NCBI GenBank assembly: GCA_964618935.1
Contig: CAZUDL010000001.1
Span: forward strand, 66,562 to 130,561
Reading direction: 5' to 3'
Origin: an uncultured Actinomycetes bacterium
GTDB taxonomy: Bacteria; Chloroflexota; Dormibacteria; Aeolococcales; Aeolococcaceae
Length of the DNA stretch: 64,000 bases
Made by a program: the position numbers and the translations under genes. Positions 10,622 to 13,772 of the stretch are shown here, piece after piece (within the stretch, counting starts at the first letter, position 1; every line of letters starts with the position of its first letter). The notes below the pieces were generated by a model that was given only the letters and a program-made list of their open reading frames with translations, had not been told where the DNA came from and ran no database searches.

Positions 10622-10685
10622 TGGTGCCAGATTGGCATGGGACTGACTTGACATGGCATCATACTGATGCCATACTGGCACCATG
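10622..10685 (+). promoter_or_regulatory. Sigma-70-like promoter with nested palindromic operator directing a leaderless transcript
   Basis: TTGACA (10648-10653), a 17-nt spacer, CATACT (10671-10676), then 6 nt to the ATG at 10683. The spacer is exactly the palindrome TGGCATCA-TAC-TGATGCCA (10654-10672). Outer arms TGGTGCCAG (10622-10630) and CTGGCACCA (10675-10683) are also inverted. Five TGGCA(T/C) half-sites in all. Confidence 0.6.
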
Positions 10686-11222
10686 AACCTCAGCCTGTAT
10701 GTCGAGGACATCCACCGCCAGCTGGTGGCCGCCGCCGAGGCAGGCGGTGACGACGCCCGGAGCCTCGCCGAGCGGCTGGTCGCGCCCCTGGAGTCGGCCA
10801 TCCGGCTCGCGCTGCAGGACGCGCTGGCCGCCGCGGCGGAGGAGATCACCTGCGATCTGGCTCCCGGTTCGGTCGAGATCCGCCTGCGCGGGCGCGACCC
10901 AGAGTTCGTTGTCACCCTCCCGCCGGCCGATCTCCCCGAGGGGGGCGCGGAGCTCGAGCCACCCGATGGGACCCCGGGGGTGGTGGGTCCGCGGTCGTCC
11001 CCCGCGGGCGAGGGCGACGAGGGGGGGATGTCGAGGATCAACCTGCGCATGCCCGACCAGCTCAAGGGCAGGGTGGAGACGGCCGCCAGCACCGAGGGCC
11101 TGTCCGTCAACGCCTGGCTGGTGCGGGCTGCCGCCGGTGCGCTCCAGCGCCATCAGCCCCCGCGTCCCCTCCAGCCGCGCGCGCCCCTCGGAGCCCAGCG
11201 GTACACCGGCTGGGCCCGGTAG
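10683..11222 (+). CDS. Ribbon-helix-helix (Arc/MetJ-like) DNA-binding protein with an N-terminal helical domain; probable autoregulator of the downstream operon
   Basis: 179 aa. The C-terminal MSRINLRMPDQLKGRVETAASTEGLSVNAWLVRAA matches the Arc pattern (NLRxP..L...V...A...G.SVN..I). High GC3 throughout. First gene after the palindromic promoter. Confidence 0.6.
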   Translation: MNLSLYVEDIHRQLVAAAEAGGDDARSLAERLVAPLESAIRLALQDALAAAAEEITCDLAPGSVEIRLRGRDPEFVVTLPPADLPEGGAELEPPDGTPGVVGPRSSPAGEGDEGGMSRINLRMPDQLKGRVETAASTEGLSVNAWLVRAAAGALQRHQPPRPLQPRAPLGAQRYTGWAR

Positions 11223-11236
11223 CCGGGGGCGAGCAC

Positions 11237-12154
11237 ATGTCCCAGGACATTCGCGTCTCTTCGGGCGGGGCGCCGGCCCCGGTATCAGAGGTATCCGACA
11301 TGGCCAGCTTCGACACTCCCGAGCCGATATCGATGAGCGTGGAGCTCGGCGCCGGCACCGTGCGGATCGCGGCCGGAGACCGCCGCGACACGGTCGTCGA
11401 GGTGCGGCCGAGCGACCCCGGCAAGAGGTCCGACGTGACCGCCGCCGAGCAGACCCTGGTGGAGTACGCGGAGGGCACGCTGACGGTCAGGGCCCCCCGG
11501 CGGTGGGCCCGGTACGTCCTCGGGGCGGGCACCGAGTCCGTCGACGTCGAGATCGCCGTCCCGGCCGGTTCACGGCTCACCGTGGAGGCGCCCGGTGGCG
11601 CCCCCGCGGTCCGCGCCACCGGGCGCCTGGGTGACTGTCACGTCAGGACCGGTGCCGGGGAGATCCGCCTGGGTGCCGCCGGTTCCGTGCAGCTGCGCAC
11701 CGGCGCCGGGGACGTCACCGTCGACCGGGTGGTGGGGGAGGCCGAGGTCAGCACCGGGGCGGGGTCGGTGCGGATCGGCGTCATCGATGGCGCCGCGACG
11801 ATCAAGGGCTCCACCGGCGAAACCTGGATCGGCGAGGTCAGTGGTGGACTCGAGGTGCGCGCTCCCTGTGGAAGGATCTCCGTCGACCGTGCCGAGCAGG
11901 CGGTCGCCGCCAGGACCGGCTACGGCGACGTCCTTCTCGGGGAGGTCACGCGAGGCGCCATCAGCGCGCAGACCGGCCACGGCAAGGTCGACGTGGGTGT
12001 CCGTGACGGCGTCGCCGCCTGGCTCGACCTGCAGACCCACTTCGGGAACGTCCGCAGCGAGCTGGAGGCCGCCGCCCCGCCGCAACCGGGCGAGGACGCC
12101 GTCGAGATCCGGGCGCGCTCCTCGTTCGGCGACATCACCGTCCGCCGCTCCTGA
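11237..12154 (+). CDS. DUF4097-family (LiaF/YvlB-like putative beta-helix 'adhesin' domain) protein, no TM segment
   Basis: 305 aa with repeated beta-strand units GAGTVRIAAGD / TGAGEIRLGAAGSVQLRTGAGDVTVDRV / STGAGSVRIGVIDG / GDITVRRS typical of DUF4097. Starts 14 nt after the RHH gene. Confidence 0.65.
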   Translation: MSQDIRVSSGGAPAPVSEVSDMASFDTPEPISMSVELGAGTVRIAAGDRRDTVVEVRPSDPGKRSDVTAAEQTLVEYAEGTLTVRAPRRWARYVLGAGTESVDVEIAVPAGSRLTVEAPGGAPAVRATGRLGDCHVRTGAGEIRLGAAGSVQLRTGAGDVTVDRVVGEAEVSTGAGSVRIGVIDGAATIKGSTGETWIGEVSGGLEVRAPCGRISVDRAEQAVAARTGYGDVLLGEVTRGAISAQTGHGKVDVGVRDGVAAWLDLQTHFGNVRSELEAAAPPQPGEDAVEIRARSSFGDITVRRS

Positions 12155-12188
12155 GCCGCCCCCGCTCACGCCTGAAGAAGGAGAAGGA

Positions 12189-13001
12189 ATGACCGCTCAC
12201 GTCCAGGGGCCGGCCGTCCACGCGCAGGGCCTGGAGAAGTCGTACAAGAAGCTGGAGGTGCTTCGAGGCGTGGACTTCGAGGTGGCGAAGGGCAGCATCT
12301 TCGCCCTGCTCGGCTCCAACGGAGCGGGCAAGACCACGGTCGTGAACATCCTGTGCACGCTGCTCAGGGCCGACGCGGGGACCGCCGGCGTCAACGGCTT
12401 CGATGTCGCCACGCAGGCTGCGGACGTTCGGCAGTCGATCAGCCTCACCGGGCAGTTCGCGGCCGTCGACGAGATCCTCAGCGGGCGGGAGAACCTCGTG
12501 CTGGTCGCCCGGTTGCGGCACCTCGAGGGCCCGGGCGCGATCGCGGACGACCTGCTCGCCCGTTTCTCGCTGACCGAGGCGGCCGCGCGACGGGTGTCGA
12601 CGTACTCGGGCGGCATGCGCCGCCGCCTCGACATCGCGATGAGCCTGATCGGGGATCCACCGGTCATCTTCCTCGACGAGCCGACGGCCGGGCTCGACCC
12701 CCAGGGGCGCCTCGAGGTGTGGCAGGCCGTCAGGGAACTCGCCGGGCGCGGCACCACGGTGCTGCTCACCACGCAGTACCTGGAGGAGGCGGAGCAGCTC
12801 GCCGACCGGATCGCGATCCTCCACGGGGGTCGGATCGTCGTCAACGGCACGCTCGCCGAGCTCAAGCGGCTGCTCCCGCCGGCCACGGTCGAGTACGTCG
12901 AGAAGCAGCCGACCCTGGAGGACGTCTTCCTCGCCATCGTCGGTGACGGCGTCAAGAATGGCGACGCAGGCAATCGCCACAGCGACGGCACGGGCAGCTG
13001 A
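12189..13001 (+). CDS. ABC transporter ATP-binding protein (ABC-2/DrrA-like exporter ATPase)
   Basis: ATG at 12189 with GAAGGAGAAGG RBS. Walker A GSNGAGKTT, ABC signature YSGGMRRRL, Walker B VIFLDEPTAGLD. Confidence 0.85.
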   Translation: MTAHVQGPAVHAQGLEKSYKKLEVLRGVDFEVAKGSIFALLGSNGAGKTTVVNILCTLLRADAGTAGVNGFDVATQAADVRQSISLTGQFAAVDEILSGRENLVLVARLRHLEGPGAIADDLLARFSLTEAAARRVSTYSGGMRRRLDIAMSLIGDPPVIFLDEPTAGLDPQGRLEVWQAVRELAGRGTTVLLTTQYLEEAEQLADRIAILHGGRIVVNGTLAELKRLLPPATVEYVEKQPTLEDVFLAIVGDGVKNGDAGNRHSDGTGS

Positions 13002-13010
13002 GGAACCACC

Positions 13011-13772
13011 ATGACCAAGCATCTTCTCGGTGACACCGCCCTCCTGACGGGACGGTCTCTGCGGCATATCGCGCGCAGCCCGGACACCATCATCACGACC
13101 GCGCTCATGCCGATCGCCTTCCTGCTGCTGTTCGTCTACGTCCTCGGCGGCGCGATCGACTCGGGGTCGAAATCGTATGTGAGCTACCTGCTGCCCGGCA
13201 TCCTGCTGATCACGGTCGTCTCGGGCATCGCCTATGTGGGATTCCGGCTCTTCCTGGACATGCAGAGCGGCATCTTCCAGCGATTCCATTCCATGCCGAT
13301 CGCGCGGTCGTCGGTGCTGTGGGCGCACGTGCTGACCTCGCTGGTGGCGAATCTGATCGCGCTGGTGATCGTCGTGCTCGTCGCCCTCCTCATGGGCTTC
13401 CGCTCGGGGGCGGGGCCGCTGGCCTGGCTCGCCGTCGCCGGCATCCTGGTCCTGTTCACCCTGGCGTTGACGTGGATCGCCGTGCTCGCCGGCCTCTCCG
13501 CGAAGTCCGCGGACGGCGCCGGCGCGTTCGCCTACCCGATCCTGTTCCTGCCCTTCATCAGCTCGGCTTTCGTGCCCACCCGCACCATGCCCGGCCCGGT
13601 GCGCGCCTTCGCTGAGCACCAGCCCGTGACGGCCATCGTCGACGCCATCCGCGATCTCCTCGGACAGCGGCCGGTCGGCGCCGACATCTGGGTCGCCCTC
13701 GGCTGGTGCGCCGGCATCCTCATCGTCGCGTATGGCGTCGCCAAGGTGGTGTACCGGCGGCGGATCGCCTGA
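13011..13772 (+). CDS. ABC-2 type transporter permease (DrrB-like)
   Basis: 253 aa with six predicted TM helices. Typical ABC-2 permease layout immediately after the ATPase gene. Confidence 0.8.
   Translation: MTKHLLGDTALLTGRSLRHIARSPDTIITTALMPIAFLLLFVYVLGGAIDSGSKSYVSYLLPGILLITVVSGIAYVGFRLFLDMQSGIFQRFHSMPIARSSVLWAHVLTSLVANLIALVIVVLVALLMGFRSGAGPLAWLAVAGILVLFTLALTWIAVLAGLSAKSADGAGAFAYPILFLPFISSAFVPTRTMPGPVRAFAEHQPVTAIVDAIRDLLGQRPVGADIWVALGWCAGILIVAYGVAKVVYRRRIA

Follow-up and report, generated by a model that had tools for sequence, protein, structure and literature searches.

A 64,000-nucleotide stretch of contig CAZUDL010000001.1 from an uncultured bacterium of the Aeolococcaceae (Dormibacteria), with a G+C content of about 72% and hereafter called the window, carries a cassette of four forward-strand genes, g1 to g4, which is probably an autoregulated regulatory unit with a pump as its cargo. 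The first gene, g1 (10683-11222), encodes a 179-amino-acid (aa) regulator with an Arc-like ribbon-helix-helix (RHH) domain, g2 (11300-12154) a 284-aa soluble Toastrack (DUF4097) beta-helix protein, g3 (12189-13001) a 270-aa DrrA-like ATP-binding cassette (ABC) ATPase and g4 (13011-13772) a 253-aa DrrB-like ABC-2 permease with about six transmembrane (TM) segments. Gene linkage and identity correlations among relatives indicate that the conserved unit is the g1-g2 pair together with its operator, and that the pump is the commonest of several cargoes. A previous reading of the letters alone (the sequence-only reading) had instead described a fixed four-gene module; however, the cargo is exchangeable, and it is g1 and g2 as a pair that make up the functional unit. 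The four same-strand open reading frames (ORFs) of that reading were found at the coordinates it gave, and its domain calls (RHH for g1, DUF4097 for g2, ABC_tran for g3 and ABC2_membrane for g4) were borne out by Pfam and NCBIfam profile searches.

We compared the window with 83 related loci that carry a g1 homologue. The gene order of the window recurred among different flanking genes in 58 of them and g1 and g2 were linked in all 83, so the arrangement goes beyond chance. Specifically, g2 adjoined g1 in every locus (it followed g1 directly in 81, lay beyond the ABC genes in L035 and was divergent in L048), whereas the ABC pair was present in about 70% (58/83). The identities of g1 and g2 to the window were tightly correlated (Pearson 0.96, Spearman 0.79), as were those of g3 and g4 (Pearson 0.96), in contrast to the g1/g2 versus g3/g4 comparisons (Spearman 0.10-0.39). 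Three loci (L002, L023 and L035) had a window-type pump with 74-88% identity, yet diverged g1/g2 genes (51-66%), which suggests that regulatory pair and pump may have been exchanged or shuffled as cassettes. The gene order of L035 is g1-g3-g4-g2. Loci with g1 and g2 only were followed by variable genes, such as those for MoxR, a deformylase, a phosphoesterase or a cytochrome P450. On Streptomyces linear plasmids a g1-g2-P450-ferredoxin arrangement recurred with GtrA-like and MMPL genes nearby, as in L084 (pSLUN1, 3935-7053) and L085 (NZ_CP108116, 238955-242268), both with an MMPL transporter in the vicinity. The pSLUN1 example corresponds to lun1-lun5, which border on the lunaemycin gene cluster; Lun1 and Lun2 are given as 'unknown' (PMC9866976), and a GtrA family gene also lies within this neighbourhood.

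The g1 family is very large. At 90% clustering more than 6,100 sequences matched with E <1e-3, and at 50% there were 1,368 clusters with E <1e-3 and 716 with E <1e-10, nearly all of 160-190 aa and matching over the full length. Relatives were present in at least 593 species-level genomes, including Streptomyces, Kitasatospora, Frankia, Actinoplanes, Saccharothrix, Acidimicrobiia and Dormibacterota, and the closest relatives of the g1 from the window (87-89% identical) came from the Candidatus Dormibacterota metagenome-assembled genomes L017 and L025. The locus of the window is thus an ordinary, typical member of a very common actinobacterial cassette.

Upstream of g1, a promoter scan over 10000-14600 (4.6 kb) returned TTGACA-17-CATACT at 10648-10676 as the only sigma-70-like promoter (10/12 matches; 0.1 expected by chance). 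Its -35 hexamer TTGACA occupies 10648-10653 and its -10 hexamer CATACT 10671-10676, ending 6 nt ahead of the g1 ATG. Because of this short distance and the absence of a Shine-Dalgarno sequence ahead of g1, the g1 mRNA is most likely leaderless. The promoter is embedded in inverted repeats and overlaps three operator boxes. Box 1 (TGGCATCA, 10654-10661, position -29) lies inside the promoter spacer, box 2 (TGATGCCA, 10665-10672, position -18) overlaps the -10 hexamer at its start and box 3 (TGGCACCA, 10676-10683, position -7) has the A of the g1 start codon as its final base. Boxes 1 and 2 together form a perfect 9-nt palindrome. A distal operator site upstream of the -35 hexamer (10622-10638) consists of one full TGGTGCCA box and a TGGCA half-box; it forms a 17-nt inverted repeat of 88% complementarity with 10667-10683 and is kept in the close relatives L004, L017 and L025. 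All these elements are on the forward strand.

The 90 nt upstream of g1 were extracted from each related locus, and the 81 distinct sequences, from Dormibacterota to Streptomyces, aligned gap-free at the ATG. In their consensus, cTTGaca-TGGCGCCA-tng-TGGTGCCA-TaA-TGGCGCCA-TG, a -35 hexamer precedes three palindromic 8-bp TGGNNCCA boxes that start at -29, -18 and -7 with a spacing of 11 bp, the consensus of box 2 being TGGTGCCA. Taking at least five of six matches to TGGNNCCA as occupancy, a box was present at -29 in 63 and at -18 in 68 of the 81 loci, and further upstream at -51/-50 in 35 and at -61 in 11. Along box 3 (columns -7 to 0), T was found in 76, G in 77 and G in 56 sequences, followed by C in 78 and A in 81. 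The T at -35 was kept in 78/81 loci, and in the -10 region the A at -11 in 77/81 and the T at -7 in 76/81. The operator and the geometry of its boxes are therefore conserved. The operator-controlled promoter put forward in the sequence-only reading is supported by these comparisons, and the conservation across phyla makes the case much stronger than it had been.

When 84 loci (873 kb in total) were scanned for the triple box, it was found at the expected site (-29) in 78 loci, with only four independent extra copies elsewhere; three of these (L048, L043 and L066) precede system-linked genes and the fourth (L044) lies 138 nt upstream of g1. The plasmid g1-g2-P450-ferredoxin loci have the operator as well. 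In L048, an actinobacterial metagenome-assembled genome, g2 and an ABC ATPase gene (2827-4523, reverse strand) are divergent from g1 and have a triple-box operator of their own at 4683-4712. Since this divergent pair has its own full operator, the operator appears to be duplicated when the genes are split. Two Streptomyces loci carry a second triple TGGNNCCA operator about 450-510 nt upstream of g1 (L066, 4557-4586; L043, 4489-4518), in front of a divergently oriented gene for a GtrA-like protein with four TM segments (in L066 at 3968-4504, reverse strand; PF04138, 25.1 bits versus a cut-off of 26.1). The GtrA-like genes with their own operator suggest that the regulon may extend beyond the operon. 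To look for a wider regulon, we also searched the 64-kb window, which has no other tandem operator site with up to two mismatches. The motif travels with the system genes across phyla and therefore fits the operator of a co-inherited regulator, and g1 would be the protein that binds the boxes.

Profile searches of g1 returned RHH-type models only (aa 116-148): the HicB-type model PF05534 scored 22 bits against a cut-off of 21 (aa 118-148), with further matches to the Arc model (E=0.021) and to RHH_5. In a profile search against the PDB the Arc repressor ranked first (E=0.0018), and the g1 segment SRINLRMP...GLSVNAWLVRA closely resembles the corresponding Arc sequence, PQFNLRWP...GRSVNSEIYQRV. 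In the AlphaFold2 (AF2) model, which was compared with known structures by Foldseek, the RHH helices (residues 125-137 and 142-156; predicted local distance difference test, pLDDT, 75-85) superposed on CopG and Arc at 1.0-2.1 A (CopG 1ea4, TMt 0.88, 1.0 A). With a strand and two helices over about 45 residues and a matching profile, g1 belongs to the RHH family. Alignments with 54 closer and 88 diverse relatives showed R118 to be the sole fully invariant residue across the diverse set and N120 to be invariant in the closer one, with R122, S141, N143 and W145 kept in at least 90% of the latter. These putative DNA-contact residues are conserved alongside the boxes from Dormibacterota to Streptomyces. 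From the conserved R118/N120/R122 and the tandem boxes, we infer that g1 dimerises through its beta-ribbon and binds repeated sites in a sequence-specific manner.

The remainder of g1 divides into parts of different conservation. The sequence-only reading had pointed to an Arc-like regulator with an N-terminal region of about 115 residues that could be placed in no family. Neither Pfam nor NCBIfam matched aa 1-115, and the first 80 residues had no match in Pfam, NCBIfam or the PDB; the length has to be corrected, as this region comprises a strongly conserved 80-aa domain (aa 1-80) and a variable, acidic and Pro-rich linker of about 35 aa (81-115) predicted to be disordered (residues 82-117 in the AF2 model). 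The N-domain was modelled as a helical hairpin (residues 4-21 and 23-55, pLDDT 72-82) followed by a beta-hairpin (residues 64-77, pLDDT about 57). Behind the RHH domain (116-156), a variable basic stretch leads to a conserved C-terminal tail, GxQRYTGWAR (GAQRYTGWAR, aa 170-179, in the window). The pairing of this regulator with DUF4097 is routine (83/83 loci), which is half of a condition that the sequence-only reading had said would refute it; the other half, a known family for the N-domain, does not apply, as it belongs to no named family.

The HicB match raises the question of whether g1 and g2 are a pair of the type II toxin-antitoxin kind, with g1 as an autoregulating RHH antitoxin and g2 as a toxin or co-repressor. 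PF05534 is the top Pfam match, RHH-type models including it match 83 of the 88 diverse relatives, Foldseek also retrieved the antitoxins VapB and AtaR, and the layout is similar, in that the RHH gene lies ahead of that of its partner, the operator would be autoregulatory and the C-tail is conserved. In addition, plasmid-borne relatives were named 'hypothetical protein', 'YlcI/YnfO family protein' and, in several cases, 'toxin-antitoxin system HicB family antitoxin' by the Prokaryotic Genome Annotation Pipeline (PGAP). However, the PF05534 match is confined to the generic RHH segment (aa 118-148), the model of the HicB N-terminal fold (PF15919) matched only one of the 88 relatives, and weakly (E=0.042), and no HicA-sized ORF or HicA family match adjoined g1, whose neighbour was the DUF4097 gene in 83/83 loci. 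With neither this fold nor a HicA gene, g1 does not qualify as the HicB antitoxin of a HicAB pair; the HicB label goes back to the RHH segment only, and the PGAP name is probably wrong for g1-type genes. Toxins are not known to adopt the Toastrack fold (the searches did not include PADLOC, PHROGs or toxin models), and g1-g2 nearly always drives cargo genes, unlike toxin-antitoxin pairs. We therefore consider a toxin-antitoxin function very improbable and retain the regulatory cassette as the preferred explanation.

The partner gene g2 encodes a genuine Toastrack protein (DUF4097/DUF2154/DUF2807). Pfam identified DUF4097 alone (PF13349, 3.2e-11) over positions 4-247 of the 247 of the profile, and the AF2 model was an all-beta helix (pLDDT 84, predicted TM-score 0.83). 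The best Foldseek matches were 3lyc, 3pet, 4opw, 3ljy, 4ygu, 3jx8 and 4qrk, crystal structures described as 'putative adhesin' (probability 0.84-1.00, E 3e-5 to 3e-3), with low TM-scores (0.2-0.47); 4opw and 4qrk are those cited for Toastrack by Ravi et al. 2024 (PMC11237479). TM segments were judged from the 19-residue hydropathy maximum, by which g1, g2 and g3 have none and g4 about six; the maximum of 0.99 for g2 agrees with the earlier view of a protein without TM segment. The start of g2 had been placed at 11237. We revised it to 11300 because relatives, of 282-292 aa, align to residues 22-305 of the query only, an AGAGG Shine-Dalgarno sequence and an ATG at 11300 are conserved in seven loci, and L002 and L023 have frame-breaking indels upstream of the equivalent ATG. 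Therefore, g2 most likely spans 11300-12154 and the g1-g2 gap, previously given as 14 nt, is likelier to be 77 nt, while the gaps of 34 nt (g2-g3) and 9 nt (g3-g4) remain as they were. A Shine-Dalgarno sequence (AAGGAG) precedes g3, that of g4 (GAGGAA) overlaps the g3 stop codon, and, in favour of an operon, some relatives show 4-nt overlaps (g2/g3 in L002, g3/g4 in L001). The RNA structure of the g1-g2 spacer and of the region after g4 was no better than that of shuffled sequence (z -0.16 and +0.30).

A comparable operon has been noted before. Ravi et al. 2024 mention an operon of Toastrack, ABC ATPase and permease that in Actinobacteria uses an RHH factor instead of GntR (PMC11237479, section 27, Text S2.4), and propose that transcription of this operon is regulated by the RHH protein. 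The window has the same components in one predicted operon (RHH factor, Toastrack, ATPase and permease) and the lineage is alike (Actinomycetota and neighbours). Given that this type appears in one sentence of that study and that the family is very large, the term 'undescribed' used in the sequence-only reading was too strong: the locus is a real, well-conserved cassette of an already noted, uncharacterised kind and not a new kind of system. That study gives no accession for the RHH variant. It does not describe the N-domain and C-tail, the operator or the presumably leaderless promoter, nor does it mention that g1 and g2 form a core whose cargo can be exchanged or that the Toastrack is soluble; in its parent GntR version Toastrack is membrane-anchored, in contrast to the soluble g2. 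New here are the triple-box operator, the geometry of the presumably leaderless promoter and the domain map of g1, as well as the invariant g1-g2 core with its exchangeable cargo, the extra operator copies, the corrected g2 start and the likely HicB mis-annotation of family members. Searches of the literature on RHH, ABC and Streptomyces found no characterised homologue; TmcL and Lun1 appear there only as 'unknown', and the himastatin regulators HmtA/B/D, considered as characterised homologues, are unrelated proteins.

The Toastrack domain could also suggest a LiaF/YvlB-like module for envelope stress, which the sequence-only reading had proposed. Toastrack would then sense membrane or cell-wall damage at the inner membrane face and relay it to the RHH protein, the pump protecting the envelope as in the Lia, VraTSR and PadR-HAAS systems. 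Ravi et al. 2024 (PMC11237479) count the actinobacterial RHH and ABC Toastrack operon among candidate functional analogues of the phage shock protein (PSP) system and propose Toastrack as a scaffold of sub-membrane signalling complexes, and GtrA-like and MMPL membrane proteins are encoded near some relatives. The Firmicute proteins LiaF/LiaG, VraT and YvlB share with g2 the Toastrack beta-helix and the genetic coupling to a transcription regulator, and are often coupled to stress-response genes. However, they are mostly membrane-anchored or fused to SHOCT-like domains and accompanied by two-component systems or PspC, whereas g2 is soluble and paired with an RHH protein. Neither a TM segment nor another membrane-anchoring domain was detected in g2 by Pfam, so that it has no anchor or SHOCT-like tether, and it lacks the genomic coupling of the LiaF/LiaG/VraT type; the LiaG equivalog model gave 29.5 bits against a cut-off of 285. 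Genes for LiaSR/VraSR, PspA/PspC, LiaI or PadR-HAAS were absent within about 5 kb in the window and, for LiaSR/VraSR, PspA/PspC and PadR-HAAS, also from L001-L003. Moreover, g2 stays with g1 in the roughly 30% of loci without the transporter, and a P450-ferredoxin cargo is not an envelope function. The envelope-stress assignment is thus unsupported, and we regard it as unlikely.

In the regulatory cassette that we favour, g1 dimers would use an Arc-like beta-ribbon (R118-x-N120-x-R122) to bind the three TGGNNCCA boxes, one dimer per box and all on one face of the helix, with the distal site upstream of the -35 hexamer adding to them. Occupied boxes would occlude the -10 hexamer together with the promoter spacer before it and the +1/ATG of the leaderless transcript behind it, so that bound g1 would repress g1, g2, g3 and g4. 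Repression is the strongest step of this mechanism; it is suggested by the fact that the boxes are conserved along with the R-x-N-x-R strand, and by analogy with Arc, Mnt, CopG and MetJ, which are established examples of RHH repression. In common with Arc, Mnt and CopG, whose fold and sequence it resembles, g1 would bind as dimers to short promoter repeats about one helical turn apart and regulate its own expression; it differs from them in its 80-aa N-domain, 35-aa linker, conserved C-tail and obligatory partner gene, and would use three to five boxes instead of two half-operators. The activity of g1 would in turn be set by protein contact with g2 as a co-repressor or anti-repressor, probably through the tethered N-domain or the conserved C-terminal GW tail, a role to which the complete linkage and co-variation of the two genes point and to which fusion proteins lend no support. 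Derepression would then lead to production of the DrrAB-like ABC-2 exporter; in other genomes a P450-ferredoxin pair or a GtrA-like membrane protein would be regulated in this way. In the weakest step, the signal would most likely be a toxic lipophilic compound or an antibiotic, judging by the cargo (DrrAB-like pump, P450) and by the setting in gene clusters and on plasmids. The alternative cargo (P450-ferredoxin, GtrA-like) and the location at biosynthetic-cluster edges likewise point towards a small-molecule or xenobiotic response.

The cargo resembles DrrAB, the daunorubicin resistance system of Streptomyces peucetius, in having a separate ATPase and a six-TM ABC-2 permease, and the DrrA and DrrB models were the best NCBIfam matches of g3 and g4. 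Both proteins belong to the general families (ABC_tran, PF00005, 3e-28 for g3; ABC2_membrane, PF01061, 1e-21 for g4). In contrast to DrrA, g3 has no C-terminal extension (270 aa, covering profile positions 1-222 of 302).

Several points weigh against the model. The curated cut-offs for DrrA and DrrB were not reached, g3 scoring 282.7 bits against 312.45 with its best subfamily model (drrA, TIGR01188) and g4 73.9 against 146.9 with TIGR00025 (DrrB family) and 50.2 against 223 with TIGR01247, which places the pair outside the DrrAB type proper. Likeness to DrrAB does not fix the substrate, since ABC-2 systems of this kind export lipids, polysaccharides and ions as well. Co-transcription of all four genes was assumed solely from their spacing, and no intrinsic terminator was detected within the module or downstream of g4. 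The AF2 model of g1 is of moderate overall quality (mean pLDDT 62) and the structure search returned no informative neighbour for its N-domain. Experimental work on any family member (binding, expression or interaction) was not found in the literature. Finally, there was no g1-g2 fusion among 150 representatives, nor a DUF4097 domain in nine longer relatives that were scanned.

The lack of fusions among the representatives would also fit a one-component system, in which g1 alone senses the substrate of the pump through its N-domain and g2 is a structural accessory of the cargo or unrelated, rather than a regulator of g1. A conserved N-domain joined by a flexible linker to an RHH domain is indeed the usual layout of a sensor with a DNA-binding module. 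Against this, the 80-residue helical hairpin and beta-hairpin have no obvious ligand pocket in the AF2 model, and the complete linkage and tight co-variation of g1 and g2, whatever the cargo, indicate that the working partner of g2 is g1 rather than the pump. Similarly, the divergent g2 of L048 has its own operator copy. These features make g1 acting alone an improbable account, although one with better prospects than the toxin-antitoxin pair.

A RibD_C (dihydrofolate-reductase-like) gene (13818-14393, forward strand) starts 45 nt past the g4 stop with no terminator detected in between; it was rejected as an operon member, not being conserved beside the cassette in relatives, and any read-through in the window may just be due to its chance location. 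Further downstream, on the reverse strand, 15226-15875 holds a typical type II toxin-antitoxin pair unrelated to the cassette, in which the genes for a PIN-domain (VapC-like) protein and a MazE/AbrB-type antitoxin share 10 nt, and 15940-18897 encodes a 985-aa fusion of a UvrD/Rep helicase and a C-terminal PD-(D/E)XK nuclease (AdnB/AddA-like). On the other side, the region 8095-9770 just upstream of the cassette contains a cytochrome b gene (9075-9770, reverse strand) and, overlapping it, a long reverse-strand ORF (8095-9387) with no Pfam match, the translation of which looks membrane-rich. A forward-strand ORF of 150 aa with no Pfam match (10032-10484) ends about 140 nt ahead of the distal operator, and GC-rich inverted repeats between the two (10487-10540) could be its terminator.

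Going beyond the autoregulated cassette, g1-g2 could be a distinct portable switch, in which the soluble Toastrack receives a signal (such as a drug, a metabolite or the pump's state), controls the Arc-like repressor via the N-domain or GW tail and serves varied detoxification cargoes (ABC-2 pump, P450-ferredoxin pair, GtrA-like protein) across Actinomycetota and Dormibacterota; we put this forward tentatively, as a proposal with somewhat less than even chances. To our knowledge, the mechanism of no Toastrack/DUF4097 protein has been worked out, the domain having been studied mostly in membrane-anchored proteins of Firmicutes. The g1-g2 family offers a simpler system for Toastrack function, as its Toastrack is soluble, its RHH repressor small and its operator, at about 30 bp, sharply delimited, and it is found in hundreds of cultivable Streptomyces, often at biosynthetic-cluster edges or on linear plasmids. 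The operator consensus and the promoter geometry permit direct tests and regulon prediction in any genome. If the portable switch holds true, it would provide the first mechanistic role for a free-standing Toastrack and a new class of sensory partner for RHH repressors.

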